This document shows, one piece after another, positions 4,264-41,121 of a stretch of 48,822 nt of DNA. Below the pieces are notes generated by a model. The model worked only from the letters and a program-made list of their open reading frames with translations, was not told the origin of the DNA and ran no database searches. The stretch lies in the UHGV virus genome UHGV-0098481. One strand, 5' to 3'. The position numbers and the translations under genes were made by a program. The stretch is from a virus. Every line of letters begins with the position of its first letter. Position 1 is the stretch's first letter.

Positions 4264-4709
4264 AAATTCTTCTTGTTGAGGATATTGAATATAAGCGTGA
4301 TAAGGTGATCGGTTTACTAGAGTCTATTTCTGCCGATGTATCAGTCGATGTAGCTAAATCTTATGTTTCGGCAGTAAATTCCGCAACCAGTAAAACTTAT
4401 GATCTTATAATATTAGATATGAGCCTTCCCACTTACGATAAGGGGCCTAATGAAAATGGAGGTCGCTTCAGAGTGTACGGAGGGAAAGATATTATTCGCA
4501 AGTTAATGAGAGGAAAAGAGCATCCAGTAGTTGTGGTTTTAACACAACATACAACTTTTGGTGAAATTGGTGAGCAAAAAAATACTGACACTCTATCACA
4601 AGAGTTGAATGCTTTAATGGGATCAAAATTTATAGGTATTGTAAAATATGACTCAACTAAACCTCAATGGAAAGATGAAATAAAAAAAGTCGTACAGGAT
4701 TTGTTATGA
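4260..4709 (+). CDS. Stand-alone receiver (REC/CheY-like) domain protein (DtcB-like)
   Basis: 149 aa; MKILLVEDIE acidic pocket and LIILDMSLP phospho-acceptor Asp motif; start overlaps upstream stop (ATGA). Confidence 0.75.
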   Translation: MKILLVEDIEYKRDKVIGLLESISADVSVDVAKSYVSAVNSATSKTYDLIILDMSLPTYDKGPNENGGRFRVYGGKDIIRKLMRGKEHPVVVVLTQHTTFGEIGEQKNTDTLSQELNALMGSKFIGIVKYDSTKPQWKDEIKKVVQDLL

Positions 4710-11850: not shown

Positions 11851-11918
11851 TTAATTTGCTCCAGATACAAGAAATCGCCGCAGCATTGCCACAGTGATGC
11901 ATTATTAATCAAATAAAG

Positions 11919-11933
11919 AGACCGCTGTGGTCT
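11919..11933. promoter_or_regulatory. Operator-like inverted repeat AGACC-N5-GGTCT between divergent mnt and tailspike starts
   Basis: Dyad in the 146-bp intergenic region; form is similar to the P22 Mnt operator as remembered. Confidence 0.35.
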
Positions 11934-11996
11934 TATTGAGGATGCAACCAGCAGATAATAAGATGCCGATCCACTCACAAAAGCGAGGCATCAAGA

Positions 11997-12248
11997 ATGG
12001 GAAGAGATGACCCGCAATTTAATCTGCGGCTACCTTACGAATTAAAGGAAAAACTAAAACAGCGAGCCAAATCCAATGGCCGCTATCTTAATTCAGAATT
12101 AGTTCAGATAGTGACTGATGCTGTATCAAAGCCATCCAAAATTTCAGGCTATCGAGACGATGCGGAACGCATCGCTGATGAGCAGTCTGAACTTGTTAAG
12201 AAGATGGTGTTTGATACGCTGAAGGATTTGTACAAAAAACCCACCTGA
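11997..12248 (+). CDS. mnt: Mnt repressor (Arc/MetJ-type ribbon-helix-helix)
   Basis: 83 aa, near-identical to P22 Mnt as remembered (…RLPYELKEKLKQRAKSNGR…DAERIADEQSELVKKMVFDTLKDLYKK). Confidence 0.85.
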   Translation: MGRDDPQFNLRLPYELKEKLKQRAKSNGRYLNSELVQIVTDAVSKPSKISGYRDDAERIADEQSELVKKMVFDTLKDLYKKPT

Positions 12249-12262
12249 CGGTGGGTTTTATT
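12240..12262. terminator. Bidirectional rho-independent terminator between convergent mnt and the putative toxin gene
   Basis: cccacc-tgac-ggtggg hairpin flanked by A-run upstream and T-run downstream. Confidence 0.65.
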
Positions 12263-12680
12263 AGTGCTTGTATAGGTTGAACTCTCTATCAAGCCATATA
12301 ACAAAAAATGTCGATCCAAGACGATAACCAACCATGGCTTTCAAATCATCAAATCTAAAAGCCAAGAAATGATCTACGTCTTCCGTTATATGACTGGGGA
12401 TACCTGCTTTAATTGCACCCCTTGCAATCTTCTCAAATCCAAGCTTATGCCTACCTTGCTGCTTAATATCTGCCCATGTTAGTTGACTTAATCTGTATAA
12501 TTTATCAGCTAAGCCAGCTTTCTCATCTTTTTGGCATTTCGTTATGCAGTGAGAGCTTTGGATGTAACAGAATGAAAATTTCGGTTTCTTTTGATCTGAA
12601 TTCCCCCCTGACTGCGGCCCTAACTTTAACTTACCTGTAGATTCAGCAGGGGGGATAATCCTTTTAGATTTTCTTGCCAT
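12261..12680 (-). CDS. Hypothetical protein, candidate toxin partner of the Panacea-domain protein
   Basis: ~139 aa from MARKSKRIIPP...; starts 4 nt after the upstream ORF stop; basic N-terminus; no family assigned. Confidence 0.5.
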   Translation of the reverse strand: MARKSKRIIPPAESTGKLKLGPQSGGNSDQKKPKFSFCYIQSSHCITKCQKDEKAGLADKLYRLSQLTWADIKQQGRHKLGFEKIARGAIKAGIPSHITEDVDHFLAFRFDDLKAMVGYRLGSTFFVIWLDREFNLYKH

Positions 12681-12684
12681 CTCG

Positions 12685-13134
12685 TTAGTTAATCCGAGTT
12701 GCAAAGTACTCTGCCATCTCCTTAGAACTAATTTCAGAACCACCAACACCCTCAATATAGTTTGATCTCCATGGTGACTCTTCGTGTGTCATGTTCCTCA
12801 GTTTCCAGGCAGAAAATTGCCCAAAAACATCCCAGACTTCTTCTAATAGCTCTAACTGTTCTTCGCTGAATTTTTCAGCATCAAAAGACTCTGGAGAAGG
12901 GATAGCACCATTACCATATTGTTTATAACGGTGATAAAGCTCAGGGACAACAGGGCCATGCATCCAAGCTTCCATCTTATTCTGAAAAAGAGGCTCGCCA
13001 AGCAACGCCAATGAAAAACCCTGAGCATAGTAAACAAGCTTTTGTAATTTTAAATTAGAGATTGCGTCACCGCTATCCTCGTCACACCGCGACAGGAAGT
13101 AGTCGGCGACATCAAAACAAGTAAGCATGAACAC
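12685..13134 (-). CDS. DUF4065/Panacea-domain protein (SocA-like antitoxin family)
   Basis: 149 aa; LKLQKLVYYAQGFSLALLGEPLF...EAWMHGPVVPELYHRYKQYG pattern typical of the phage-associated Panacea domain. Confidence 0.7.
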   Translation of the reverse strand: MFMLTCFDVADYFLSRCDEDSGDAISNLKLQKLVYYAQGFSLALLGEPLFQNKMEAWMHGPVVPELYHRYKQYGNGAIPSPESFDAEKFSEEQLELLEEVWDVFGQFSAWKLRNMTHEESPWRSNYIEGVGGSEISSKEMAEYFATRIN

Positions 13135-13502
13135 ACCTCCATCTTGATAGCCACAGCTAAGTATCCAACTATGTCAAATGTCATTTAATACTATAACAAA
13201 GCTATCAGCAATCCTTCTGAGGCTAACTTACAACCACTTTAGCGACATGTTTAAACCATTACGTTTCACATTTACTGCATTTTCGCCGAAGTTACCTATA
13301 AGGTAATGTCACATTTCCTGCAAGTTTCATGCAATGTTGAAAAGTGAGCTATTCACTTTTCTATGACACCAAACACCAAAAATAGCACTTTTTGCTAAAT
13401 CATTCGTCCAAGTTGTGGATGGTTTGTCGTTGACACGTTTTCACACACCACTCCACCAATAAAGTATCATCTGGTATCCTGCTCAAAACTAAGGAGGTTG
13501 GT

Positions 13503-13832
13503 GTGCTTGAATGGTTTCTGTTGGCTGCATTAGTCGTTTCTGGTTTGGTGTATGAGTATCGAATGCACTCTCTAACAAAAAAAATAGGAATTCTAGAAAA
13601 CGAATATTGTGCTCTCAAATCCTCACTGGAACGTGAGCAAGGGGACTTAAAAATCTCTCTGTCTAGCATTGAGCGTTCTATAGAGAGCTTAGAGGATAAG
13701 GTTGATCGTATAAAGAATGAGGATATTCATGATATTAAGGACGACATATCCTTCTTAAAATCTTGGTTGAAAAATGTTGGGAAAATTGCCACATCAACAC
13801 GAGATAAGCTCAATCCATCCATGGATGACTAA
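13503..13832 (+). CDS. Small membrane-anchored coiled-coil protein (moron in the sieA-equivalent slot)
   Basis: GTG start 5 nt after AAGGAGG; N-terminal TM helix (WFLLAALVVSGLVY) then heptad-rich region; convergent with gp16. Confidence 0.6.
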   Translation: MLEWFLLAALVVSGLVYEYRMHSLTKKIGILENEYCALKSSLEREQGDLKISLSSIERSIESLEDKVDRIKNEDIHDIKDDISFLKSWLKNVGKIATSTRDKLNPSMDD

Positions 13833-15968
13833 TTACTCCTGTGCCATTCCGCTTAGTGATGCCACAATTCCAGCCCTTGCTAAACGCTGGAACTCTTCGT
13901 TTCCTAGTGCCTCGCGTATTGCTTTTACGGCGGCCTTATTTGCCATAAATCTGCGTTCCGCCGCCGCTAATGCACCATCACTTGCCCCAACCTTAACGGC
14001 CTTTGTTGCCTCTTGAACAGCCTTTTCAATAGCGTAACGACCACTTCTAGTTGCGGATAATTTCGCTATCGCTCCTTTTGCCATTGCATCAATTGCTCCA
14101 CCTGCAGCGCCACCCGCTATTGCTCCAATAACGCCTCCTCCAGAGAACCCTGCGATAGTGCCAGTAGTTCTAAAAGCGCCAGACAATGCGCTCTCTAAAA
14201 CTGGATGAAGGCCATTCTCAAGAGTGCTAATGGCTGGCATAGATCGCCCTGTCTGTTCAACATATCGAAGTGGCTTTGTTGCTGCTCGTGCAAGTTCTCC
14301 GTATGAACTTGTAATCCTGCCAAGTTCTGGAGAATATCGACTAATTGCCTTCACGTTTTGTGGGGTAAGAATAGTCGCGATATGCTTAATTCCAGCCTCT
14401 TCAGACTTACCTCCGCGTACCCCTTGCGACATTGCATCTTGTAATATTGATGCAATTGCTGGCGCGCGTTCCGACTCAGGTAGGGCGCTTATTATTTTAT
14501 GGAACTGACCTGTTCCACTTTTTGCTGAACCCTGTAACGCCTTAGATCCATTAGTTACCAACTGATCAGTTGCAAGGTCTCTACCAAACGCTGCTTCAGC
14601 CTGTTCTTGTGCTGTAAATCTTGCCTTTGACAGATCATTAGCTTTTTGCCAGTCATCAAGAAAACCACCATTTTGAGCCATTATGCGCATATCTTCCGTT
14701 GCTGCATCACGAAGCTCAGCCATGCGCCTTGCCGTATTTGCCTCACCAGACCTTATATACTTCTGCTCTGCGTCAGCAAGTTTACTTCGCCATGCCTTCA
14801 TGGCATCAAACGTGATTCCTTTTTTACCAGTTTTAGCATAAGCAGATGCGAATTGTTTCATCTCAGGAGTTAGCGGCATGCCAGCCAAAATATCACCCTG
14901 AATTGTAGCGTTCAGGTTTGACATTCTGGCCTTTGCGTCAGGCATCGTGGAGCGAACGCTATCCCATGCGGCCTTTTCTGAATTTTTCATTTTATCAATA
15001 CTTGCCAAAACCCTTTGTTTTATGGCTGCACTTTTTTCTGATGCAGTTCCTGCTTCAGCCCCAAACTCATCCAATGCTGAGTTAAATTTCGACTCTATTT
15101 CACTGAATGCTTTGGTGTGTGCATCCTGTGTAATTCCGGGCTTTGACGCCAGAATCCCCTCCGCCTGAGCAAGACCACGACTACCTGATCTCATGCCAGG
15201 AGTTAATGCGTTGATATCTATTCCAGCAGTATCTGCTGCTTTTGCTATTTCTTCTGACACATTAGCTGACTGTCTGGCGATAATCTCTCTTCCTGTACCA
15301 GACTTTGCCATTTTCGAAACATCAGCAGCGGAATTTATTGCCCCGCCACCAAGAACTTGAGGTGATTTAGAGGTTAAGATCCTTCCAGCCCCAGAAAGTA
15401 TCCCCTGAGCACCAATATTGATACCACCGTTAATGGCAGCATTTTGTGCAAAGTCGCCCTCCTGATTTGCAGCATCAGCAAGAGAACCTGCAATCATGTT
15501 TCCTGCGGAACCGATATCTCCAGCGAGCTTTGCTGGCGCTCCAGCAGCTTTTGCCGCTGTGCCAATTGGCAGGAGATACCCACCAATTGTTTCACCGGCT
15601 TGCGCGTAAGGGTCTGTCGGTCGATCGACAGGACGATAGACATCATCCAATACTTTTGGCCCACCAAGCCCCTGACTGATTGCATTAATCAGACTTGCGC
15701 CACCCTGCAATACGTCAAATGGTATGTTTACCAGACCACGACCAGCCTGTTCTGCAATTTGCCCTGCACTTTGACCACCAGTGAGCCAATCGCCAGCTTG
15801 TTGCATCAATGATGGTTCTTCCCGTGTTGGTGCATTATTGGCCTGATTAACTGTTTGTTGCTGAACAGCCTGACCAGCAAAATACTCATCAATGGCGGTG
15901 CCAATATCTTCGGTGCTCGTACCATCAGGAAAGGTAAATGTCTTACCGTTTGCAGTTACTTTCATCAT
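13833..15968 (-). CDS. Ejection protein gp16-like
   Basis: Position and size in P22-type gene order after gp20; Ala/Gly-rich. Confidence 0.75.
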
Positions 15969-17371
15969 TCCACCGTAAATTGAATGCCTGATTTTGAGGT
16001 ATATGATCCAACCTGATTCCGTGGTTCTCCTGAAGGTGTCGAATCTTGTGCTGGCGCTGCGTCAGTATTCATTGACATATACCGCTTAACGGCACTCCCC
16101 AATGATTCACCTTTTTTAACATCCAACCCCAATATCTGACCGCCATTACGCGATTGTCCAGGGTTGCCATTCGCGCTCATCCACTCAGCTTTAAACTCAT
16201 TAAACTGCGCGTTTCGTCGCTCAAGGTTTGCCATTGCATCAAGCCATCTTGCGACCGTCTCAGGGTTATCCATGTCAGTTGGCGCACCCTGTCGAACGAT
16301 CTCAACGTCTTTATCCGTTGCTGGGCCGGGAGGTAGGAATTTAAGAACCTGACTGTTAACAAGGGCATTTTGGCGAATGCGCAAATCACGCAATGTCGTA
16401 TCGCTTCCGGTAAGTTTTGCGAACATGTTCTGTGCGTTACCGAACAAACCGGTCGTTGGTTTTTCTGCTCTGAACTGTTGAGCAAGCGCACTCATGGAAT
16501 TGGCTGAGTTTGATGATGCTGTGGCATTGTTTACAGCCGTCTCGATGCCTTTTTCCATGTTTACTGACAGCTTAGGTGCTTCGCTAATCAACTGCTGAGC
16601 CTTTTCCTGCGCTTGCTGCATCTTAAACCCGAACTCTTGCTGATCCAGAGCCAAGCGTTGTGCTGCGATATTGTGCCCAGTCATTGCTGACTGATAGGAA
16701 AGGTTTTGCCCTCTCGCCTGAAGTGCTTCACCAGCCTGATTGCTGCGGATTGTCTCTACCAGTCTGCCTCGGTCAATCTCACGACCAGCCATCTTGTCCT
16801 GAACATTGAAGTAGTCAATCGGACCGAGAGCAGCCATCCCAAGGTGATCAACAAACTCACCAAATCCTGAAGGGTTCTGCTGATACATCTGAGCAACGCT
16901 GTTAGGGTCAACACCGACGCGAGTCAGTTCCTTGGCGTTGTTTTGCAGCCATGATTGCATTGCTTCTGGAGACGATGACGCAAGGCGTGCGCCAGCCGCT
17001 AAGGTGCCGATAGAATTGCGCTGGTCTTCATCAATGAATCCCATGCCTTTACGAACGGATTCAATCTGGTCTGGATATTGAGTAGCCAGCTGACGCAAAG
17101 CACCGCGATCACCAGACGCATAAGCATTAGCGTATGCCTGCTGAAATTCTTTCTGCCGCTGAGCCTGCTTTTCCTGCTGAAACACCCCCGCAATACCTGA
17201 AAGGCCTTGCAAAGCAGTCAGCCCAACATTGTTAGCGCCTGAACGCTCAATATCATTGTTCTGTCTGATAAGCTGAAGCGTATTGCCGATGTCATTTACG
17301 CTCGGAGCGTTTGAGTTGACACCACCGATACCAGCCAACAATCCGCCATTTGTTCCTTGCCAAGTAGCCAT
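15965..17371 (-). CDS. Ejection protein gp20-like
   Basis: 468 aa, synteny with P22 gene 20. Confidence 0.75.
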
Positions 17372-17380
17372 GATTACCTC

Positions 17381-18073
17381 TTAAAACAACGATCCAAGCA
17401 GGCCAAGTCCGCCGCCAATTGCCGCACCTAATCCAGTGCCAAGTCCGGGAACAATAGAGCCAAGAGCAGCGCCAGTCATAGCCCCTGAAGCTCCGCCGCT
17501 AATTGCTGTCTGAAGACCTGATGGTTTATTGGCATTAGCAGCGGCAAGAGCCGCACTTTGCTGCGAAATCTGACTCATGTTGTTGGCATATGTCTGCCCG
17601 GCGTTTGCCTGACCTTGCAGTGCGCCAAGACCAATATTTGCCAGATTCTGGTAGTTGTTCATCTGACCAGACAGCCACTGCTGACCAAGCGTTGGTGCGA
17701 TTGTTGCTAACTGATTACCGGTTGCAGTGGAACCCAATCCACCTGTTGCTTCCGCTGCAGCCAGACTCTGATAGCGAGCCTGACCAGCAAGATCTTTGTA
17801 CTGCTGAGAGTTGTAATACTGGTTAAGTGCCTGACCTTGCCCCTGAAGAGAGGAAAGATTCTGCAATTGTGATACGTACTGCTGAGCGAGTGGCGTGAAC
17901 GGAGCAAGGTTTTTCATGATCGTCTGCCACTGCTGATTCTGCAGGTCTGCGGCATACTTCTGAGCTTCTGCTGCATACTTTGCGCTTTTATCGGAGCCAC
18001 CTTTCCCGCCTTTTTCAGGGCAATAAGGTTCCTCGCCGCGCAGTTTTCTGCCCAGCTTAAATGCATATAACAT
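17381..18073 (-). CDS. Ejection protein gp7-like
   Basis: 230 aa, Gln/Ala/Gly-rich, synteny with P22 gene 7. Confidence 0.75.
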   Translation of the reverse strand: MLYAFKLGRKLRGEEPYCPEKGGKGGSDKSAKYAAEAQKYAADLQNQQWQTIMKNLAPFTPLAQQYVSQLQNLSSLQGQGQALNQYYNSQQYKDLAGQARYQSLAAAEATGGLGSTATGNQLATIAPTLGQQWLSGQMNNYQNLANIGLGALQGQANAGQTYANNMSQISQQSAALAAANANKPSGLQTAISGGASGAMTGAALGSIVPGLGTGLGAAIGGGLGLLGSLF

Positions 18074-18075
18074 GG

Positions 18076-18531
18076 CTATCTCCCGTGATTCAGGAAGTCG
18101 ATTAGTTCTTCGCGTGTAGCACTGTAAAATGTCACGTCATCCACGCCTTTGAAGTATTTCTTGATGGTTCCTACTCGCTTAAGGCCAATCATTGCGCAGT
18201 ACATCTGACCGTGGCGGAATTTGCGCGCAGCGAACGATGTGACGCACTGAACGGTGGTGTTAGTCAGAATGTACCGCCAGAACGCCATCCCTATTTCCTT
18301 GCTGAAGCCGCGAATCTCTGGCAGGTACATGGCGTGGCAATCGAATGTCAGCGGCTGAATCTCCTGATAGTAAACAATGCCGCCGAACTGCCCGTGCACG
18401 TTCACCTCAAAGTAACGGCATTCAGGCTTGTAGTCGTATCCATCACCGTTGTTGCTCCCGGCGATAATGTCAGGGTGATTTCCTACTGCTTCTATCAGGT
18501 CGATGTTTCGCGTTGGTTTGAATGTAATCAT
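18076..18531 (-). CDS. gp14-like ejection/tail accessory protein
   Basis: 151 aa, synteny between tail needle and gp7. Confidence 0.65.
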   Translation of the reverse strand: MITFKPTRNIDLIEAVGNHPDIIAGSNNGDGYDYKPECRYFEVNVHGQFGGIVYYQEIQPLTFDCHAMYLPEIRGFSKEIGMAFWRYILTNTTVQCVTSFAARKFRHGQMYCAMIGLKRVGTIKKYFKGVDDVTFYSATREELIDFLNHGR

Positions 18532-19232
18532 CAGTCAATCAGCCCATGTAATCTAAGTGCTGTTTCAAGCGCCAGAATACGCTGCCGCGCCTGCTGCAAA
18601 CCTGTAGCGAGAGCCGCGACTTCGGATTGTGTGTACGTAGTGCCGACCGTGTATGACTGGTTAGCGTTGAATGAGCCAAGAAGAGGTGTACCTGTGGCTG
18701 CAGTCCATCCGGTATTTCTTGCTCCAACGACCTGAATTCCATCAACTGAATATGATGTTTTTACATCCAGCGGTGACGCAAGAGACTGCGATTCTGTTAC
18801 GGTTTTCGATACGTAATCACTCTTAATGCCAGAGACATCGTTTTCTACGTCATCCAGTCTTTGGTCAACAGTGACCAGATGCGCCTGAATATCGATAACC
18901 TCATCCAGCAAGTAATCAACATCGCTACGCAGTACGACTATCTTCCCTTCGGCGGTTGTTAACCTGACCTCAAGGAGATTTATCGCTTTTGTGTTTGCGG
19001 TGATTCTTGCATCGTGGTCAGCCAGTTCGACGTCCTGTTCATCGTTTTTTACCTGGGCATCGTAAGCGCCCTGACCAGCCTGATTTGCTTTCCCGGCAAT
19101 TGCACCGACATCAGCTCCCTGATTTATGACATACAGTAGGTAAGACTGGCTGAATATATTGCGTGGAAGGATTGATGTATCGAGTCGTGTAGCCTGAATT
19201 GTTACCGGCTTATTGAGATTCGAATCCGCCAT
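18531..19232 (-). CDS. Tail needle protein gp26-like
   Basis: 233 aa; N- and C-termini match P22 gp26 as remembered. Confidence 0.85.
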
Positions 19233-20650
19233 TACTCAATCCTTATCTGGCAGCCAGACAGAGTGACAGGTGACTTCGTGATAACGCGCAATTTGAAGCC
19301 GACATTTTTCCTGATGCGCCCGACTCGCTTCCACAAAACGCGTTTGTCGTAAACGAATGGTTCATTCTGCTCAATCATCTGCTCACGCCCGTAATTGATG
19401 CCGTCAGTGGTTGCAGAGAGAAAAAGGCGGTCAGCATACTGCGCAACACCAGTTGAAGATTCAACTTCAAGGTCGAAAACTCTGCCGTTATCAGCTTTGA
19501 ACAACGGAGTAAACAGCAGGTGTTCCTGTTGCTTGTCGTACTGGCTGCTGATGTCGAATTGCAATTTCCCGGTCACGGACTCCAGCTTATCGCCGCACGT
19601 TATCTGATTGCCTTCGTAAATGAAGTCGATAGCGCGGTACACATCGTCATACAGGCCTGTTTTCAGCACACACCATTGCGGACCATTGGCGCTTGAAGAT
19701 GCGTCGTATACGAGGACATGGCGCGGAAGATGGATAATCAGCAGCTCATGCGCATCAAATCGCAGAGACTCCATCACGCCATCAGCCAGTTCATCAGCAG
19801 TGTAGGAGCGTAGTATTTTCTCAATGCTCGCGCTGGCGATTGGTGATACCTGACCAGAGCCGATGATATACACAGACGGCGCACCTGTTGCCGGATTGCT
19901 GATGAACGCATAAGAATCAGCGAATGGCGTTTTGCAGTAAGTCCCAGCAATACCTTTCTGCACCATCAGTGATGGCTGTGCAACATACAAAGCGGCACCA
20001 ACGGTGGTTGCGCCAGTAAGGGAGAAATATTCAATAGTCGATGAACCAAAGCAGACGATGAAGTCTCGCCATGTGCCGATGCCGATGATGCCGTCAGGCT
20101 GCGATTCTGCGCGATATTGTGCGCTGTATCGGTCAGGATGTGATTCGTCTTCAAGGTCAGTGATAAACCATGAATCAGTGCCGTCTTTTGACCACGCATA
20201 ACGCCCACGTAAGCGCGTAATGTCGCGTACTGAGCCTAACTCATACTGCGTGAATCCGCTGTCTGTAGGCCAGTTTGAGACGGTTTTAACCGTGCCATCA
20301 TAGCGATACTCGACCAGTTGACCATTAACGCCTACCGCCTGTGATGTCCGACCATGCGCCATTGATACGCGACCACTTCCGGCAACATCACCGACTTCAC
20401 TTTCGCCTTTGTACAGCTTGCCACCACACACGCGATAAACAGCACCCTGCGCCATGTTGTACTCGACGCCGCGAGATACACCGTTCACATCAGAACGTTT
20501 GGCAATGCCCGGGAATGAGCGAAGATATCCGCTGCTGTTCAGGATTTCTTTGGGTGTAGCCAGCATATTCACTGGCAGATAGTCGATATAGTCGGCGTTT
20601 CGAAAGTCTTTGCCGACACCTTTCATAAGCGGAAGTTGCTGAATCGGCAT
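19232..20650 (-). CDS. Tail accessory protein gp10-like
   Basis: 472 aa, same size and position as P22 gp10. Confidence 0.8.
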
Positions 20651-20659
20651 TTATTCACC

Positions 20660-21121
20660 TCACGTACTCGGATCATCTTTCTCGATGTAAAACCGATTCC
20701 ACGTAAACGCGCTTTTGTTACCACTACCGCGAGGCATGTCATTTCGCCGCTCAAGTGGTGGTATTTTGGTTAAAGCGATGCAAATTGTCTGGTATGCACT
20801 GTCAGCAGTGGTAAGGAGAGCGTCTGACGGCTGAATGACGTTATCCATGCACACTTGCACAGCGAGTTTCAAAGCGACGCCATCATTTGCCCATGCAGGG
20901 ATACCTGAATCATCGTCAGGTAACGGCATGATGCCGTTTTCTGTATCAGCAAACTGATATCCAAGCTCGATACCTTTCGCCTGCCATGCTGCCATCATGT
21001 CTTCGAGGTCATTAATGGCATCTTCAATTGCCTGAGGGTCGGCATCTGTCAACGTGGCATTGGAATACAGCCCGGCTTTTCGTAAAGCCTTTAGAACGAG
21101 ATCACCCTTCGTTTTCGCCAT
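20660..21121 (-). CDS. Head completion/tail adaptor gp4-like
   Basis: 153 aa; MAKTKGDLVLKALRKAGL...TLTD...DLE.MMA resembles P22 gp4 N-terminus. Confidence 0.8.
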   Translation of the reverse strand: MAKTKGDLVLKALRKAGLYSNATLTDADPQAIEDAINDLEDMMAAWQAKGIELGYQFADTENGIMPLPDDDSGIPAWANDGVALKLAVQVCMDNVIQPSDALLTTADSAYQTICIALTKIPPLERRNDMPRGSGNKSAFTWNRFYIEKDDPST

Positions 21122-21290
21122 CTTCTTCCGCCTTAGCCACTTTTTGCTTCGTTGCGGTTTCTTCAGGAGTTTTTACCCAACCTTTTTTCAGGTGAGATTT
21201 AACTTCTTCGTCATCAACAATGATGTAATCGACAGCAAACTGACCACAGGTGATCATGTTGCCCGGCTTATAGAGCATTGTTCGTGCCAT
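21102..21290 (-). CDS. Small hypothetical protein between coat and gp4
   Basis: ORF 21102-21329, start chosen at MARTM with GGGAGA upstream. Confidence 0.4.
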   Translation of the reverse strand: MARTMLYKPGNMITCGQFAVDYIIVDDEEVKSHLKKGWVKTPEETATKQKVAKAEEDGENEG

Positions 21291-21299
21291 TGTCTTCTC

Positions 21300-21325
21300 C
21301 CAATAAAAATGGGGCCGAAGCCCCA
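21300..21325 (-). terminator. Hairpin plus T-tract immediately after coat gene stop (terminator/attenuator)
   Basis: ggggc-cgaa-gcccc on plus strand; minus-strand transcript has hairpin followed by AUUUUUAUU. Confidence 0.55.
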
Positions 21326-21331
21326 CCAAAA

Positions 21332-22591
21332 TTACTGCCCGGCAATAACGATGCCCGTATATTCAGGAACAAGTACAGAGCAGCCGTACAGAGTGGTGAA
21401 ACGCGCAGTGGTTACGCCTTTGATGTGGTCGAAGGCGTAAGACATGATCAGCGTAGCGCCCTGCTCGGTGGTTGCCGTCATTACCTGTGGACCCTGACCA
21501 GTCGGGAACGCCAGTTTGCCGTACATCAGCTCAACAGAACCATCAGCCCAGAACAGGTTAGCAGGTGCTGCGTTCTTGTTGAGAATGGTGATTGCTGCAG
21601 TTTCTGCCGGCTTGGCATCGACGTTTGCATATGGACGGCTCGCAACATCGGCATTTCCAACAGGGAGAATCTTTGGAGAGATTGTTACGGTGGTTCCTGC
21701 TGTGTCTACTGCCAGAACGCGGAATACCTGCGGCTGCCCGGTGGTATCTTTGGTGATCTGGTGTACGGAATTCACACCTGCGATGGTAAACGCATCGCCA
21801 ACCTGCAAGCCTTTAGCAGATACCGTAATGGTCCCCTGTCGGTTATCAACAGGCATGCCATTTGAATCTTTCGCTTCAACCTTGTGTTCAGGTTGATTTG
21901 ATACTGTCAAGGTTTCAGTGCTTCCTGCCGGTAATCGACCGGAAATATCGGTCTTGTAGCTATCAAAGGAAGCAACCGGAGGGATCTGCGCTTTTTCGTA
22001 TGCTGTCAGGGTTGCGCCCTGAGCGTAGGCACGGTGACCAAGCTCGCCAGCAAGGTCTTTGTAGTTGAATGGGTCCCAGAAAGAGCGACGGTTGATACCC
22101 TGAGGTACACCAATCGCCGTCATGGTGGCATCAATATCTGCCGCACCATTCCACAAGGCAAGGCCCCGTGAGCCATTTTCTGAGGCAGGAATTGCGACCA
22201 CGTTAGTAGCACGCTGCGTAACCATGGAAATCAGGTCAGAGTCAATCTGTGCAGCAAGGCGCATACCTGCAGCGCGACCAGCTTCAGTTTTATGTTCCGG
22301 GTCACGCATTTCACGCGCATCCAGAGTGTACAGTATGTTTTTCGGCTCCTTGAACACAGAAGGAACAAGGCGCTGAACCAGTGCTGTTGGCGTTTTGCCG
22401 CTGAGGTCTAGGCCTTCCTCAATGTTCATGTGGTAATGCTGCGGACGATACAGAACATCACCTGCTCGCTGCATTGCTGTATCACCGGGACGGAATTTTT
22501 TAGCGTTACGGGAAACTACGCAGGCGGCCTCAAAGCCTTCAACGTAGTTTTCGAACATGATTTCAAGGTCTTTTGCTAATTGGTTAGTCAT
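21332..22591 (-). CDS. Major coat protein (P22/Sf6-like)
   Basis: 419 aa, synteny after scaffold; HK97-fold coat of P22-like phages by position and size. Confidence 0.85.
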   Translation of the reverse strand: MTNQLAKDLEIMFENYVEGFEAACVVSRNAKKFRPGDTAMQRAGDVLYRPQHYHMNIEEGLDLSGKTPTALVQRLVPSVFKEPKNILYTLDAREMRDPEHKTEAGRAAGMRLAAQIDSDLISMVTQRATNVVAIPASENGSRGLALWNGAADIDATMTAIGVPQGINRRSFWDPFNYKDLAGELGHRAYAQGATLTAYEKAQIPPVASFDSYKTDISGRLPAGSTETLTVSNQPEHKVEAKDSNGMPVDNRQGTITVSAKGLQVGDAFTIAGVNSVHQITKDTTGQPQVFRVLAVDTAGTTVTISPKILPVGNADVASRPYANVDAKPAETAAITILNKNAAPANLFWADGSVELMYGKLAFPTGQGPQVMTATTEQGATLIMSYAFDHIKGVTTARFTTLYGCSVLVPEYTGIVIAGQ

Positions 22592-22609
22592 GCTTAATGC
22601 TCCGATAGG

Positions 22610-23503
22610 TTATTTTTTTGCCTTTTTAGCGGCGAAATACGGCGTCCAGTCACCAGTTTCCAGCGCCTTGGCTTTCAGTTTGTCGAGGTTATTGATTACT
22701 GCGCCGTTGCTCCCCTTAACTGTCGGGGTTGTGGCTGCCGTGGTTTTTGCTTTTGGCATGATTCTGGCCTTAGATTCGATACGTTCCAGCAGACGACCAA
22801 TTGCTACGGGGTTGGTAGCTTCTGCCAGTTGCTTGCGCAGTTCAGCGTTGCGACCAAGCGCCAGAACAACGATTTCCGGCTTCTCTGACTCAAGAAGGAT
22901 CATGTCCTGAATATGAACAGGAACATCTTCGCGTACAGCCTGCTCTGCATCCTGGTAGCCAGCCACTTTCAGTGCTTTTACTCTCTGCATGTAATTGGCT
23001 GCTTTCTGCTGAAGCGTTGCGGTACGCGCCTCTTCCTCTCGTTTCCGCTCTCGTACTTGCTCCTGGTATTTGCCGTTTTCCTCTGCCCACTTAGCCATAC
23101 GTTGCTGATAGATTTCTTCATCGAAACCGATGTCCTCATCATCCAGTTTTGGCATTCGCGGTGGTTGAGTGATTACCGGCTGCTGCTCGACGGGTTTCTG
23201 AGACTGACGCATCAGCTCTTTCAGCTCGCGGTCTTTCTCTTTAATCGTCTTGCGCAGGTGTTTTACCAGTCCATGCTCTGCGCCATCTTCGCTGGTTGGC
23301 GAATCCAGCTTTTCGTCACCAAAGTAGAATTCCTGTTCTGATTCGTCGTCATCAGTTTCAGTGGCTTCCTCTGCATCATCGCCGGAGGACTCTCTGCCAT
23401 CTTCTGTTTCGACTTCTTCAGCCAGTTCGACATCATCAGGAATCTGCTCTGACGCGTCGGTTTCGATTTCAACTTCTGGTGTGTTTTCTGCCATCTGGTC
23501 CAT
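22610..23503 (-). CDS. Scaffolding protein
   Basis: 297 aa, highly acidic N-terminus, charged helical composition, position between portal and coat. Confidence 0.8.
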   Translation of the reverse strand: MDQMAENTPEVEIETDASEQIPDDVELAEEVETEDGRESSGDDAEEATETDDDESEQEFYFGDEKLDSPTSEDGAEHGLVKHLRKTIKEKDRELKELMRQSQKPVEQQPVITQPPRMPKLDDEDIGFDEEIYQQRMAKWAEENGKYQEQVRERKREEEARTATLQQKAANYMQRVKALKVAGYQDAEQAVREDVPVHIQDMILLESEKPEIVVLALGRNAELRKQLAEATNPVAIGRLLERIESKARIMPKAKTTAATTPTVKGSNGAVINNLDKLKAKALETGDWTPYFAAKKAKK

Positions 23504-23593
23504 TTGTTACCCCTGTTTACTCGATGTTCAGCCCATCGGAAGGCAATAGGGTGCCAGGCCTCATAAAGACAGCCATTGCACGTTATGGGTTAA

Positions 23594-25792
23594 TTACTGC
23601 TGTGGTTGTTGCTGAGTTGATTTTTGCAGGATGCTGCTGATGTCCATGCGCTGCGCATGGCCCTGTGCCTGACTTTTCAGGACAAGCTCTGCATCAGCAC
23701 GGGCATTATCTCCTTGCTGTTGCTGGAACTGTCCGAGCAGTTTCAGCGCCTCACGGATGTCAGATTTTTGCTGGCTATCGGCAGATGCGAGGATTTTCAC
23801 AACATTTGCCGCAGCAACCTGAGCATCCGTCTGTGCCTGGAATGCTTTAACCTGAATGGCTGCTTGTTCGTTCTGCGCTTTCTGCAATTCAGCCTGACCA
23901 GCAAGAAGCTGACCTTGCGCAGCAACCATAGCCGGATCTGGCTGACTGGCCTGTTGTCGTTTCGCCTGCTCAACCATTTGCTGTTCTTCAGGCGTTCTCG
24001 GCTTGATAACGCCAGACAGAAGCAACTGATTGCGGTTGTATTCTTTAAGGTCGTCCATCCCTTCGCCGTCCATATTGTCGAGAATCATCGACGATACAAG
24101 GTCGTGCTTCGGCGTCCCTGGCGGGATAAGTGCCAGCATGGAAAGTAACGACTTAACCGTTGCATCACGGCGAGTAGCGAACGACTGACCGACATCGACA
24201 GTCACTTCATAGTTGCCCTGCGAAAGGTCATTAAGCGCGATAACCTGCCCTGTCTGACGGTCAACAACTTCACCAGTCATCAGCGCCACGTCATCGCTGC
24301 CGTCCTCATTAACGATACGCATCGGCGTATCACTGCCATAGACCTCACGCGCCATAGAAAGCCACACGACGCCAGCGCGGCGCATGGATTTAGCCATGTT
24401 GTCCATGTAGATATAGGACTGCGTATCCATCCGGTTAAAAATGCTATCAACGGTATCGGTGGCGACGTTGCTCGGCATGTTCTCAAGCTGCGACGCACCT
24501 GTAATTTGCTGAATAGCCGTTCCGGTGTACTGCAATAGCCCGGCAAGAGCTGGCGGCATTTGTGTCGGAGGTGTATAACTGCTGACCTGAGCCTGCGCAG
24601 TAATATCTCCGTTTTTGTTTTTCAGACTGACCATCGGCAGGAACGCCGGGCGCTTTTTGTTGCGCTCCGCCCAATGAGTGGCAAGAGGACCAGGAATCAT
24701 GTCAACATCAACTACAGGAATGCCATCACCGCCAGCCTGAGTAGCGTTATCTGCAATCATGGAAACCATCAGGTTCTCAAGACGCTGTGCATCCATCGCT
24801 TTTGCTGCGTGGCCTTCTATTCGCTCCTGATTATCAACAAATGAGCGACGCCCATATACCGGGATGAGAGGAATATGTTCGCCCGGAATACGCTTCGGTT
24901 CTTCCAGCCATTCAGCGCCAGACAGAAGACCGCAATAAACTCTGCGTTTCTTCACTGTCCGCTCACCAATCAGTTCGAATGCGCCATCGGTCAGCTCGTC
25001 GACAATATCTTTGATTTGCTCTTCATCATAGATTGCCGTTTCTCCGCTGACAGGGTTACGCCACGCCGTGAGCTTCACCTTCTCTATGCGAACTTCGTAG
25101 TAGCGTCCAACATAGATGGCATCGGGCGTTGACCAGTCATATTGAGTGCCAGTGTCATCACGAGAAAGGCTTGCCGCGATGGAATCAGGGTATTCAGCCT
25201 CGAACGCTTTAGGCGTCATGGAGAACATTTCCATAGCCCACATAGCATCAGAACGGTCATATTGCTTGCTGTCCTGATCGAAGAAGACGCATGTCGCTGG
25301 GTCGTAAACAGGAAGAAGGCTGATGCGTCGCTGCTCGTTACTCGGATCCATTTCATCTTCGTAATCGGCACACATGCGGAAACAACCGAATCCGCCCGTT
25401 ACAGCATCATCAAATGCGTTATCACACGCTTCACCACCGGATGTTTCCTGATAATCAGCGCGGAATTTGCCGTTCATCTTTTCGGCTAACGCTTCCGATG
25501 CCTTATCGTCCTTCGGCCTGAATTTAACGCTGATGCGATTCTGCCGATACTCGCCAATGATGCGATCGCATTCACGGGCAATCTTATTCAGTTCAAAGCG
25601 CGGATAATGCTCAAACCTGCCTTCATCAAATGAGTAACCAGCGTTTGTGCTGCCTTCCCACTGTGCGCCGGATACCCGGACGAAACGTTGAGCCTCAATA
25701 ATCTGCTCGCGCATATCCTGCGTTGCTGACCAGGCATTATCAAAGTTGCACAGCACCTTGCGATGCCAGTCAGTCATCTTTTTTTCTGCCAT
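23594..25792 (-). CDS. Portal protein (P22 gp1-like)
   Basis: 732 aa; conserved core (…RRRVY…GEHIPLIPV…) and Gln-rich C-terminal barrel region typical of P22-like portals. Confidence 0.9.
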   Translation of the reverse strand: MAEKKMTDWHRKVLCNFDNAWSATQDMREQIIEAQRFVRVSGAQWEGSTNAGYSFDEGRFEHYPRFELNKIARECDRIIGEYRQNRISVKFRPKDDKASEALAEKMNGKFRADYQETSGGEACDNAFDDAVTGGFGCFRMCADYEDEMDPSNEQRRISLLPVYDPATCVFFDQDSKQYDRSDAMWAMEMFSMTPKAFEAEYPDSIAASLSRDDTGTQYDWSTPDAIYVGRYYEVRIEKVKLTAWRNPVSGETAIYDEEQIKDIVDELTDGAFELIGERTVKKRRVYCGLLSGAEWLEEPKRIPGEHIPLIPVYGRRSFVDNQERIEGHAAKAMDAQRLENLMVSMIADNATQAGGDGIPVVDVDMIPGPLATHWAERNKKRPAFLPMVSLKNKNGDITAQAQVSSYTPPTQMPPALAGLLQYTGTAIQQITGASQLENMPSNVATDTVDSIFNRMDTQSYIYMDNMAKSMRRAGVVWLSMAREVYGSDTPMRIVNEDGSDDVALMTGEVVDRQTGQVIALNDLSQGNYEVTVDVGQSFATRRDATVKSLLSMLALIPPGTPKHDLVSSMILDNMDGEGMDDLKEYNRNQLLLSGVIKPRTPEEQQMVEQAKRQQASQPDPAMVAAQGQLLAGQAELQKAQNEQAAIQVKAFQAQTDAQVAAANVVKILASADSQQKSDIREALKLLGQFQQQQGDNARADAELVLKSQAQGHAQRMDISSILQKSTQQQPQQ

Positions 25793-37761: not shown

Positions 37762-37899
37762 TTCTTAAGATTTCCAATAGTGAATAGTTAGTTGAAAGGT
37801 ATGCGTGGAAACGCATATGGCCTTAGTTGGTCAGATATATTGGGACTCGCTTTGTCAGCGACGTAGGACGAATGTCCATTGTGAAAATAGCGGTGTTAC

Positions 37900-38914
<1,015 letters not shown>

Positions 38915-38991
38915 GGCCAGCAACGGATCACAACAAACACATGGGGCGGCGGATTAAGGGTGATGGAGAATCGAAATAAGTTGAGGTCAAC

Positions 38992-39147
38992 ATGAACACG
39001 TTCAGCATAATCGCGATACCTTTTTTTGCCCTTTCAGTGGTTCTGTTGACTCTTGGCGCTACCAGGAAGAACCAAGCCAGCTTCATCGTTGGCGGCGTGT
39101 TTATGGCGTCATGCGTGGTTAATGCCATTATCGGCATGTCTCTTTGA
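38992..39147 (+). CDS. Small two-TM membrane protein (51 aa) immediately downstream of cI
   Basis: GAGG 6 nt upstream of ATG; MNTFSIIAIPFFALSVVLLTLGATRKNQASFIVGGVFMASCVVNAIIGMSL; below the ORF-track cutoff. Confidence 0.45.
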   Translation: MNTFSIIAIPFFALSVVLLTLGATRKNQASFIVGGVFMASCVVNAIIGMSL

Positions 39148-39339
39148 GCGCTATGAGATCAGGCATCCTCGTTACTTTGTCATGTGTGACAGCCTGGTAT
39201 GCACTCTGCGAGCTTTGATGTGGTTTACCACTTTAATAGTCACCGTATCACTAAACTGATTAGCTTTACTCATACTCTTGTGGATTCGCTATTTCTGATG
39301 TCAATGCAAAAAAATACTAAGGAAACAAAAAGGATACTT

Positions 39340-39606
39340 ATGTCAGATAACACTATTAAAATCATACCTCAGCACATGACCGCCACATCAGTTCTTATTA
39401 CGCCTGATCGTGCTGAAACAATCATTACTTTTTACCGCCATGAATTTGAGCATCACATGCAGTCTGATGAGCAAGGAAATAATAGCTTCCAAGTAAAAGT
39501 TGAGTTGACCCCTAACATGTCAGTCTCAATGAGCCCGGATCAAGCTGTTGCATTAGTAAAATCATTACAGGTAGCTCTCAGGGATAATGGGCTATGGAAA
39601 GACTGA
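39340..39606 (+). CDS. Hypothetical protein (88 aa) in the rexAB-equivalent position
   Basis: ORF 39199-39606, start chosen at MSDNTIKII with AAGGA upstream. Confidence 0.45.
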   Translation: MSDNTIKIIPQHMTATSVLITPDRAETIITFYRHEFEHHMQSDEQGNNSFQVKVELTPNMSVSMSPDQAVALVKSLQVALRDNGLWKD

Positions 39607-40244
39607 AGCCAGTTTCTTCAGTTCAACCTACCTCAGGAACAACATCATCAGTTCTTCCAAGTATTATAGTTAGTGCAACCCTAGCAGCGACAACCGTTTC
39701 TCCTTATGGGGATCCATCTCAGTACCAAAGTATTGGTATTGATGCTAAGGTATCAAATAGAGTTTCATACGCCATGGACGAAACGGGTTTGCGCCCAAGT
39801 AAGGAAGATGTAGCGATGAAGAGTGATACCCTGGAGGTAAGCGTGAGCGGAATGTCCAGAGAAGAACTTGACGCAAAGCTTTCACAAAACAAATCAGAGG
39901 TAGAGTCTATTGCTGCGGAAATGCGTCGCGAATCAGCTGACTTTAAAACCTATTATACTCAGCAATTTTCTTCTATTGAGAGAGGTATTGCTGAAATTAA
40001 AGGTGAAATCGGCGGTTTGAAAACGGGACTTACAACGACTCAGTGGGCGATGGCCGTTGGCTTGACTTTAGTTACTGTGATTCTGTCTGGCGTGATGTTA
40101 GCCTCAAGTTGGATTATCTCCGGCAATGACAAGTCACCATCAGTAACCAGCCCGGCTCCAATTATAATACAGGTACCGACACAGCAACCATTAACGAGCG
40201 CTCCAACTAACCAATCGTCATCACAACAAGCTCCTAAGCAATAA
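39594..40244 (+). CDS. Hypothetical coiled-coil protein with C-terminal TM helix
   Basis: 216 aa; central heptad-like region, TM segment WAMAVGLTLVTVILSGVMLASSWII, Ser/Pro/Gln-rich tail; start uncertain. Confidence 0.55.
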   Translation: MERLKPVSSVQPTSGTTSSVLPSIIVSATLAATTVSPYGDPSQYQSIGIDAKVSNRVSYAMDETGLRPSKEDVAMKSDTLEVSVSGMSREELDAKLSQNKSEVESIAAEMRRESADFKTYYTQQFSSIERGIAEIKGEIGGLKTGLTTTQWAMAVGLTLVTVILSGVMLASSWIISGNDKSPSVTSPAPIIIQVPTQQPLTSAPTNQSSSQQAPKQ

Positions 40245-40248
40245 ATAA

Positions 40249-40276
40249 ACCCGGCCACCGCGCCGGGTTTTCTTTG
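40249..40276 (+). terminator. Rho-independent terminator ending the cI-side operon (tIMM equivalent)
   Basis: cccggcc...gccggg GC-rich hairpin followed by TTTTCTTT. Confidence 0.75.
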
Positions 40277-40425
40277 CCTCACGTTCGCCCCAAAACACAT
40301 AACCAATTGTATTTATTTGGAAATTAATAGATACAACTCACTAAACATCGCAATTCAGATCTCTCGATCACCTTCCCAATCCACACAACCCTGCAAAAAA
40401 TAAATCTATATAAAAAACATACAGA

Positions 40426-40495
40426 TAACCATCTGCGGTGATAAATTATCTCTGGCGGTGTTGACATAAATACCACTGGCGGTGATACTAAACAC
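40426..40495 (+). promoter_or_regulatory. oL operators and pL promoter (lambda type)
   Basis: ACATCTGCGGTGATAAATTATCTCTGGCGGTGTTGACATAAATACCACTGGCGGTGATACT: three operator sites, -35 TTGACA and -10 GATACT, as in lambda pL. Confidence 0.85.
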
Positions 40496-40557
40496 ATCAG
40501 CAGGACGCACTACTCACCAGGGCGGTGAATATACAACGATTCGAATATGAATCTACG

Positions 40558-40572
40558 GCGCTGACAAAGCGC
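40558..40572 (+). promoter_or_regulatory. nutL boxB-like hairpin (P22 type)
   Basis: GCGCTGACAAAGCGC stem-loop ~60 nt downstream of pL; matches the P22 boxB as remembered. Confidence 0.5.
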
Positions 40573-40737
40573 AATAACCAAAGTGAACTTTGGGGTGTGG
40601 TGAAGGGTTCATGGACGGGAATATGTCGCACGTAAAGCGGCGAGGCCTGCGGGACTATTGCCGAATTGAAGTAGGCCGAAACAGGTCGAAATGGGTCTCC
40701 CACCTACCACACCACCAAAGTTCATCAGGAGGTCTAT

Positions 40738-41121
40738 ATGACACGCAGAACTCAGTTCAAAGGCAATTCACGTTCTCGTCGTCGTGAGCGTTTAAAGGCA
40801 AAGGCATTAGCTAACGGCGTACTGGCCCGCGAAGAAGCAATAAGTTCAGAAGTATTACACCGCCCTACTCTAAGCAGAGCGCAGATTCAGGCTAAAGGTA
40901 CTCACGAAACGCCTGAGCGCATAGAAGACGCTAAGCCAATTAAGTTCATGGCACAGGACGTGATCTGGCAACAGAAAGAATACAGACGCAATCTGGAGAG
41001 AGCGGCCATTGTGTACGCGAATGAGTTTGGGCATAGGCAACCAGAAACTGGTGTATGTCTTCCAAATGTAGCTCTTTACGCGGCAGGCTACAGGAAATCA
41101 AAACAACTGACAGCAAGGTGA
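40738..41121 (+). CDS. N-type antiterminator (P22 gp24-like)
   Basis: AGGAGG 7 nt upstream; arginine-rich motif RSRRRERLKAKA near N-terminus; C-terminus ...LPNVALYAAGYRKSKQLTAR resembles P22 gp24. Confidence 0.7.
   Translation: MTRRTQFKGNSRSRRRERLKAKALANGVLAREEAISSEVLHRPTLSRAQIQAKGTHETPERIEDAKPIKFMAQDVIWQQKEYRRNLERAAIVYANEFGHRQPETGVCLPNVALYAAGYRKSKQLTAR

Follow-up and report, generated by a model that had tools for sequence, protein, structure and literature searches.

In the virus genome UHGV-0098481, analysed here as one stretch of 48,822 nucleotides (the window), three open reading frames (ORFs) fill the interval between a lambda-type repressor gene, cI, and the operators of the early-left promoter, pL, the position that rexAB occupies in lambda. 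The first, ORF51, is predicted to encode a small membrane protein of 51 amino acids (aa), and the other two are homologues of gp49 and gp48 of phage HK97 (Table 1). An earlier note on this DNA had described a lambda-type cI, cro and operators, together with three ORFs co-directional with cI and a strong terminator ahead of oL/pL. The ORFs and the terminator were all found as it described, and the lambda affiliation was borne out by the matches to the lambda repressor (3BDN) and lambda Cro and by the operator sequences. As far as sequence can tell, gp49 and gp48 are best explained as a translationally coupled pair that would form the functional core of the region, with ORF51 as a separately mobile unit beside it.

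Table 1. Features of the window between cro and N (TM, transmembrane; SD, Shine-Dalgarno sequence; CDS, coding sequence).
Feature	Position	Strand	Description or basis
cro	37900-38100	-	lambda Cro match, 1e-38
cI, lambda type	38201-38914	+	match to lambda repressor 3BDN, E = 4.5e-156
ORF51 unit	38941-39159	+	~50-nt conserved leader, GAGG SD, 51-aa CDS
ORF51, 51 aa	38992-39147	+	two-TM hairpin membrane protein, predicted
Non-coding spacer 5' of gp49	39160-39339	+	no recognizable promoter, terminator or RNA family
gp49 homologue, 88 aa	39340-39606	+	predicted soluble partner
gp48 homologue, long form, 216 aa	39594-40244	+	predicted tail-anchored membrane protein
Internal translation start in gp48	39833-39845	+	predicted; GGAGG 39833-39837, 5-nt spacer (taagc), GTG 39843-39845 (codon 84)
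gp48 short form, 133 aa	39843-40244	+	predicted; coiled coil, TM helix and tail
gp48 TM helix, residues ~151-176	40044-40121	+	near-invariant Q150-W151 just before
gp48 tail motif	40155-40178	+	(A/Q)-P-[IV]-[VI]-[IV]-x-V-P, here APIIIQVP; family form QPxVIxVP
Intrinsic terminator closing the operon	40247-40278	+	9-bp G+C-rich stem, 6-nt loop, then UUUUCUUU
oL3-oL2-oL1 and pL (early-left operon start, outside the cassette)	40430-40493	+	lambda operator sequences read directly
N gene, HK97/933W-type	40738-41121

The plus strand of the window corresponds to the l-strand of lambda. Promoter and terminator scans found no intrinsic terminator and no convincing promoter between cI and the closing hairpin, and a pLIT-like internal promoter 5' of gp49 was found neither by scan nor by eye. 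The hairpin itself (40247-40270, with its U-tract) folds with a free energy of -19.1 kcal/mol (z = -3.05), and beyond it the pL hexamers read TTGACA-17-GATACT at 40461-40489. The spacer ahead of gp49 is not conserved with the Klebsiella locus, and an Rfam scan of 37800-40800 gave no match. A lysogenic-conversion operon would fit this layout, with a presumed pRM transcript running through cI, ORF51, gp49 and gp48 to the terminator. One antisense sigma-70-like site (TTGATA-16-AATACT, 39756-39729 on the minus strand, 9/12 matches) lies inside the N-terminal coding region of gp48 and faces the junction of gp49 and gp48, an arrangement reminiscent of the sas antisense RNA of P22 sieB; the count of promoter-like sites in the region is not above that expected from shuffled sequence.

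The sequence as such is not new. From the cI stop codon to beyond the terminator, 1386 bp are 99.8% identical to phage HK97 in the same gene order and between the same flanks, cI and pL, and the two larger ORFs are HK97 Gp49 (NP_037734) and Gp48 (NP_037733), annotated since 2000 with no function assigned. They fall into PHROG 26809 (gp49, 4e-62) and PHROG 5820 (gp48, 1e-68), both families of unknown function; the HK97 annotation omits ORF51. The immunity and early-left regions of the window are HK97-like, whereas its virion genes are P22-like, of the CUS-3/Sf101 type. The window is thus a mosaic prophage, in which ~11500-24000 match the virion genes of P22-like phages (CUS-3, Sf101 and phiv205-1) and the early region that of HK97 and mEp043; no phage record matched the first ~11.5 kb, which are probably chromosome. 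The same 1386 bp are 99.8-99.9% identical to phages HK225 and PDP110P1, and copies at 99% identity or more occur in 52 of 5426 complete E. coli genomes and in 22 IMG/VR contigs. Their flanks comprise at least four sequence types on the repressor side and at least six on the pL side; the cassette therefore moves from one immunity type to another as a unit. The apparent novelty lies at the level of the family, in a tail-anchored coiled coil with a predicted dual start, swappable partners and obligatory placement downstream of a repressor.

The gp49/gp48 pair and its family

The stop codon of gp49 overlaps the start of gp48 (ATGgaaagacTGA), and the start of the long gp48 form has only a weak SD (-4.9 kcal/mol). 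Hydropathy analysis found no hydrophobic segment in gp49, whose predicted secondary structure consists of beta strands and a C-terminal helix. A Klebsiella homologue of the same length and with the same start is 66% identical to gp49; the proportions of non-synonymous (pN) and synonymous (pS) differences between the two are 0.23 and 0.90, the synonymous sites being saturated. Similarly, gp48 has a pN/pS of ~0.26-0.5 in comparison with its Klebsiella and Yersinia relatives (0.26 for Klebsiella). The earlier note had named non-coding ORFs, judged by conservation, as grounds for abandoning its proposal; in the conservation analysis made here, all three ORFs of the cassette proved to be under purifying selection. 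Its assignment of two TM segments to ORF51, none to the 88-aa protein and one, with a Ser/Pro/Gln-rich tail, to the 216-aa protein agrees with hydropathy.

The gp48 protein can be divided into a fast-evolving N-terminus (residues 1-83), a coiled-coil helix (~89-139), the TM helix and a Pro/Gln/Ser-rich tail (177-216). Its AlphaFold2 (AF2) model has a mean confidence (predicted local distance difference test, pLDDT) of 52 and is confident only for helix 89-139 (~85) and for the TM helix at 148-177; residues 1-88 and the tail are disordered in it. Column statistics over 96 members of the family gave a conserved helix of the form S-R-E-E-L-D-A-K-L-x-x-N-K-A-E-V-x-x-x-A-A-x-M-R-x-E-M-A-x-(W/F)-R, and 11-residue repeats, varying in number, occur in some members. 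Q150 is kept in 89 of the 96. Along the TM helix runs a stripe of small residues (positions 154/158/161/165/172), in which Gly, Ala, Ser or Thr account for 94-100% at 154, 158, 161 and 165; the location of these four on one face of the helix suggests tight packing in the membrane. In the tail, prolines 189, 199 and 204 are kept in 80/86, 79/83 and 92/92 members, respectively, and 58 of 90 members end in Lys. The absence of a signal peptide and the long hydrophilic N-terminus point to an N-in/C-out topology, and the tail motif is presumed to be periplasmic. A single C-terminal hydrophobic segment, a long helical N-terminal part and no predicted signal peptide place gp48 among the tail-anchored coiled-coil membrane proteins, which are a structural class and not a homology family.

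A second TM helix, VLPSIIVSATLAATTV at residues 20-35 (39651-39698), was considered and rejected as a feature of the family. Over 19 residues this stretch scores 1.0-1.55 in hydropathy, short of the value usually required for a TM helix. Members of the HK97-type subfamily retain it (Klebsiella L009, L052 and L054; L numbers denote loci of the comparison), and other family members lack it; in the subfamily it may be a contact site for gp49-type partners. A further variation was seen in the tail: in the otherwise near-identical genes of E. coli KMi029 (L012, 3797-4432) and Citrobacter pasteurii (L021, 3848-4453) it is an (Ala-Pro)n repeat of ~13 and 8 units, respectively, and this difference suggests a rigid spacer of variable length.

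A profile search of 1.84 billion representative proteins recovered at least 179 clusters of the gp48 family at E <= 1e-3, with 106 at E <= 1e-10. The proteins are 90-370 aa long, apart from one of 1514 aa that matches only over a short repeated stretch, and in 94 of 96 members there is exactly one hydrophobic segment, near the C-terminus, preceded by a median of 146 aa and followed by a median of 37. The family was found in Escherichia, Citrobacter, Klebsiella, Kosakonia, Phytobacter, Yersinia, Sodalis, Xenorhabdus, Morganella and Proteus, and also in the betaproteobacterium Aquitalea; a profile search of genome contigs with a narrow alignment gave 4 loci. In every readable locus a small gene precedes the gp48-family gene on the same strand, usually overlapping it or a few bases away, so the layout of one soluble and one membrane protein, noticed earlier in the window, holds across the loci of the family.

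The module lies directly 3' of, and co-directional with, a repressor gene in ~20 distinct prophage contexts. The gene 5' of the pair encodes a cI-type repressor with a helix-turn-helix (HTH) and an S24 domain in at least ten contexts, a short Rac-type HTH repressor in at least five and Mnt or Arc in four. The first group comprises the window (HK97-type cI), HK225, at least two further repressor types that flank an identical cassette, and loci L004/L023, L005, L008, L020, L052, L054/55/57, L066, L068 and L073; the second comprises L009-11, L012/L021/L059, L022, L058 and L067, and the third L065, L051, L056 and L007/L053/L062. All loci examined lie in prophage or phage DNA beside immunity genes, except L069 and L071, whose setting was not identified. 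That the module would be expressed in the lysogen is argued most strongly, if indirectly, by this placement behind a repressor that is itself expressed there. In Yersinia-type prophages (L004, 4746-5691; L068, 1517-2162), extra small proteins with an N-terminal TM helix are encoded between cI and the pair, in what looks like additional cargo of the same operon; the two in L004 (132 and 135 aa) are weakly paralogous (E = 1e-4).

The partner genes belong to at least four unrelated types: gp49-like proteins of 84-108 aa, which form a divergent chain of similarities, Zn-ribbon proteins of 111-131 aa, proteins of 143-147 aa and a 165-aa type. Where partners are similar, so are the N-terminal extensions of the gp48-family proteins: L004 and L023 share 92% identity in the partner and 67% in the extension, and L005 and L012 share 69% and 33%. 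The conserved cores follow another pattern. The window core is 65% identical to that of L004 and 35% to that of Klebsiella, whose partner is the closest to gp49, and the L012 core is 79% identical to that of Phytobacter, which is paired with an unrelated partner. The N-terminus has a pN/pS of 0.4-0.8, compared with 0.12-0.20 for the core. In these comparisons, then, partner and N-terminal extension co-vary and the core recombines independently, a pattern that would fit the joining of a specificity unit (partner and extension) to a conserved effector unit, with exchange by recombination close to the internal start.

That internal start is predicted from several features. Its column in the family alignment lies 3-5 residues ahead of the conserved helix, where conservation is otherwise lacking, and holds Met in 65 of 95 members and Val in six; in all loci with available DNA the codon is ATG or GTG, every Val being GTG. 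The SD ahead of it (-10.6 kcal/mol) is the strongest SD-like sequence in the gp48 gene of the window, and the corresponding sequence is also the strongest in its gene in Klebsiella and Xenorhabdus. Rank tests of this SD gave a Fisher p of 4.5e-5 over 9 loci, replicated with p = 2.5e-6 over 11 further loci. Since the long ORF is kept open in all members, both products are likely to be made. Thus, gp48 probably exists in two in-frame forms, a long form with the N-terminal extension and a short form that would be the conserved core from the GTG at codon 84.

Searches of known protein families were uninformative as to function. In Pfam, NCBIfam and PADLOC none of the three proteins matched RexA, RexB or any defence family at E <= 1, nor did they match anything else there, in accord with the earlier statement that they are unrelated to RexA and RexB. 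Scans of eight neighbour or partner proteins against Pfam, NCBIfam, PADLOC and PHROG yielded nothing informative, and among the 96 gp48-family members Pfam matched only generic coiled-coil families (CCDC90-like, Baculo_PEP_C) in a third of them. Profile searches of the Protein Data Bank (PDB) with the gp48-family and gp49-like alignments gave no significant match. The remote-homology and structure searches that the earlier note had advised thus led to no function through Pfam, NCBIfam, PADLOC or the PDB, and to PHROG families of unknown function.

The cargo slot and ORF51

The site that the cassette occupies has well-marked ends. The first 51 nt of the slot after cI are shared with mEp506, and the terminator sequence is 100% identical in mEp234 and HK106 and ~95% identical in 933W-type phages that carry other cargo; the terminator marks the conserved right-hand junction of the slot. 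With the same cI-side linker and/or terminator, mEp234, mEp506 and HK106 carry HicA, HicB and a third gene (L024, mEp234, 1865-2995; L025, mEp506, 3364-4494), the third being named 'HicC chaperone' in PV340542. A cargo-exchange site, filled by rexAB in lambda and by HicA, HicB and 'HicC' in these three phages, is therefore supported. Further lysogen-expressed exclusion genes of the lambdoid cI-to-pL slot are nun and stk. According to a published account (PMC7067206), the interval between repressor and N is a hotspot of accessory loci, with rexAB of lambda and bstA of BTP1 as examples. Another, uncharacterized cargo of the repressor-downstream slot is a 331-aa protein with a weak match to SDH_protease (ClpP/SppA-like), encoded 3' of an ORF51 relative (90% identical) in a Rac-like prophage (L026/L027, 4296-5291). 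Just downstream of the module or slot, Rac-like and several other prophages (L009-L011, L026, L005, L012, L021 and L002) have a small convergent minus-strand gene of 64-69 aa, which the window lacks; where Pfam results are available, its product belongs to DUF2767.

ORF51 has a different history from the pair. It has 36 clusters of homologues, 67-98% identical and nearly all exactly 51 aa long, in at least seven enterobacterial genera, and the ratio of non-synonymous to synonymous substitution rates (dN/dS) is 0.07-0.13 (0.07 against Atlantibacter). Its hydrophobic segments span residues 6-22 and 31-47. The window resembles the Rac-like prophage L026 over ~38941-39159 alone, the similarity stopping ~12 nt past the ORF51 stop codon, and in L026 ORF51 sits behind another repressor and ahead of another cargo. 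Relatives are chromosomal in Atlantibacter, Lelliottia, Klebsiella and Raoultella; in E. coli ORF51 is found only in this cassette and is phage-borne, and it occurs in none of the other gp48-family loci. By these comparisons the cassette consists of two independently mobile units, ORF51 (~38941-39159) and gp49/gp48. The single three-ORF cassette of the earlier note therefore holds in that all three ORFs are real, but not as one unit, ORF51 being mobile separately and lying outside the conserved module.

The capture of a host gene for a small membrane protein by a temperate phage, followed by lysogenic expression, has a precedent in HK97 gp15, which derives from YebO (PMC3594210), although gp15/YebO and ORF51 are unrelated proteins. 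In Klebsiella michiganensis (L018/L019, 4755-5183) a relative of ORF51 directly follows dinI, overlapping its stop codon, and in Raoultella (L028, 3738-4156) one follows a DUF6500 gene in the same way, amid small toxin genes (GhoT/OrtT, GnsAB and YncL). The leader of ORF51 (38941-38991) is conserved between the window and L026 at least as well as the CDS, and it holds a mini-ORF of 12 codons (ATG at 38941, TAA at 38979), a candidate leader peptide, donor-gene remnant or RNA element.

Possible functions of the pair

We tentatively favour the view that gp49 and gp48 act as a sensor/effector exclusion system expressed in the lysogen, which would work like RexAB or SieB/Esc and be a member of neither family. 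Exclusion had also been suggested in the earlier note, a reasonable idea that rests, from sequence, on position and architecture; it fits the position of the genes, the coupled soluble and membrane proteins, the fast diversification of the cytoplasmic parts and the conservation of the membrane part. In such a system, gp48 would be a tail-anchored inner-membrane protein with a cytoplasmic N-terminus and a Pro-rich periplasmic tail, and it would probably oligomerize through the coiled coil and the small-residue face of its TM helix. The soluble partner and the N-terminal extension would make up the specificity or regulatory part, and the coiled coil, TM helix and tail the membrane effector. A superinfecting phage would be detected in the cytoplasm of the lysogen, and action at the inner membrane, by permeabilization or loss of membrane potential, would then abort the infection. 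The ratio of the long to the short isoform might set the threshold or confer self-immunity.

The cassette shares with lambda RexAB the slot, co-directional and 3' of cI with a terminator just before oL/pL, and the combination of a soluble with a membrane protein; the proteins have no sequence relationship. RexB is a polytopic membrane protein and RexA has ~280 aa, whereas the membrane protein of the cassette is a single-TM, tail-anchored coiled-coil protein and its soluble partner has 88 aa. In place of the internal promoter pLIT, the predicted internal start could provide control over the ratio of products. The second comparison is with P22 SieB, for which a shorter in-frame product, Esc, is reportedly able to neutralize exclusion for the phage itself. 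SieB is expressed from the prophage and associated with the membrane, as gp48 would be, and a shorter in-frame product is predicted for gp48 from the sequence signature of its internal start. The two are not homologous; no Pfam SieB-family match was found for the cassette proteins. The exclusion phenotype of SieB has been summarized (PMC10883804).

Several points weigh against an exclusion system of this kind. A single TM helix with a coiled coil is not a proven pore former, and the extracytoplasmic tail motif, the most conserved non-helical element of gp48, could mean action at the envelope, such as a block of injection or signalling. PADLOC related the cassette proteins to no known defence protein, and Pfam, NCBIfam and PDB profile searches revealed neither enzymatic nor channel domains in them. 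The AF2 model of gp49 (pLDDT 52) had no match at E <= 0.001 in Foldseek searches of the PDB and BFVD and was uninformative. A literature search on HK97 gp48/gp49, the rex slot and tail-anchored prophage defence found no functional study. Two loci, L069 and L071, show no adjacent repressor. Further, selection could act at the protein level on acidic residues before the internal Met; a reading by eye of five loci, however, gave GAG as the first Glu codon each time, which speaks for selection on the nucleotides.

The main rival, which we consider unlikely, is superinfection exclusion by a block of genome entry, as in P22 SieA or HK97 gp15. The periplasmic tail would interfere with the channel for incoming DNA or with a host factor, and gp49 and the N-terminus would serve only to stabilize or regulate gp48. 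The predicted inner-membrane location of gp48 and its conserved extracytoplasmic motif suit such a block, as does the position of the module directly 3' of an mnt homologue in L065 and beside arc in L007, L051 and L056. This mnt/arc neighbourhood is where sieA lies on the P22 map. Like SieA and gp15, gp48 would be a lysogen-expressed inner-membrane protein of a temperate enterobacterial phage, and HK97 already has one entry-blocking protein in gp15, a small YebO-derived protein (PMC3594210). Known injection blockers are, however, single proteins, and SieA, with three predicted TM segments, acts alone (PMC10883804), whereas gp48, with its one predicted TM helix and long cytoplasmic coiled coil, is always accompanied by a coupled partner gene. 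The variable parts of the module, moreover, are the cytoplasmic ones (partner and N-terminus) and the periplasmic part is conserved, the opposite of what would be expected for the recognition of diverse phages. There is no sequence similarity to the SieA or gp15/YebO families, Pfam and PHROG scans having matched only families of unknown function.

A regulatory or lysis-timing device of the prophage itself, in which two isoforms modulate the lysogeny-to-lysis transition, induction or lysis, seems improbable. RexA and RexB assist the switch in lambda, and holin/antiholin pairs time lysis. The tight linkage of the module to repressor genes and the likeness of gp48, if made from two starts, to S107/S105 of lambda could be read in this way. 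The cassette is dispensable, however, since unrelated cargo accompanies the same cI, operators and terminator in mEp234 and lambda, and it is unchanged across at least four immunity types, where co-evolution with the repressor would be expected of a component of the switch. The module lies in the immunity region in every locus examined and not in a lysis cassette, and the type of partner varies among unrelated families.

There is little to favour a toxin-antitoxin-like addiction pair, with gp48 as a membrane toxin, gp49 and/or the short isoform as its antidote and defence as a by-product. The arrangement of a small soluble gene translationally coupled to a downstream membrane protein is suggestive, and HicAB occupies the same slot in mEp234, mEp506 and HK106. 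To our knowledge, the membrane toxins of known toxin-antitoxin systems are short peptides and not coiled-coil proteins of 150-270 aa, which sets the gp48 family apart from them in size and architecture, and neither gp49, gp48 nor the alternative partners matched a toxin or antitoxin family. This alternative overlaps with the exclusion system favoured here because many toxin-antitoxin systems act as abortive infection.

Equally doubtful is lysogenic conversion in the sense of altered host envelope physiology unconnected with phages, from which the host would benefit in the gut or the environment; stress tolerance is one example, and another is attachment, by way of the Pro-rich tail, to peptidoglycan or a periplasmic partner. 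The E. coli tail-anchored coiled-coil proteins ElaB, YqjD and YgaM are stress-related. The likeness of gp48 to these proteins, its Pro/Gln-rich tail with a frequent Lys end and, in some variants, (Ala-Pro)n spacers would be in keeping with an envelope role, and relatives of ORF51 are ordinary chromosomal genes, one of them directly after dinI. The confinement of the loci to phage or prophage DNA by immunity genes (L069 and L071 aside) speaks against it, as do fast evolution and module shuffling, which are typical of arms-race genes.

The idea that one or more of the ORFs arose by chance, for example that antisense ORFs of HK225 are real instead of ORF51, can practically be set aside: the HK225 annotation does place minus-strand ORFs over the ORF51 region, and ORF51 is unannotated in most RefSeq genomes, but the constant length of ORF51 and the purifying selection on it indicate that the minus-strand ORFs are not the conserved reading, and a pN far below pS and homologues in many genera already contradict a chance origin of gp49 and gp48.

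If gp49 and gp48 do exclude superinfecting phages, they could, more speculatively, found an undescribed family of prophage defence systems that extends from Enterobacterales to Betaproteobacteria. Such a family would combine a two-isoform, tail-anchored coiled-coil effector with interchangeable small sensors that have matching N-terminal extensions, and would be co-expressed with the repressor of lysogeny, be it cI, a short HTH protein or Mnt. It would be the mechanistic counterpart of RexAB and SieB/Esc, built from quite other parts.

Although HK97 serves as a model phage, no function has been assigned to the genes in its rex slot. The cI-to-pL slot of lambdoid prophages is among the best-documented sites of lysogen-expressed exclusion genes, and its occupant in the window is a module found again behind many different repressors and in many genera, with no match among the catalogued defence families. 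If the module proves protective, it would represent a new membrane-based immunity mechanism of unusually clear modular design, with a conserved effector and a swappable sensor. The two gp48 forms, if real, would in that case be the second natural example, after SieB/Esc, of the control of an exclusion protein through its isoforms. Even if the module gives no protection, it would still be a conserved, repressor-linked function of prophages.

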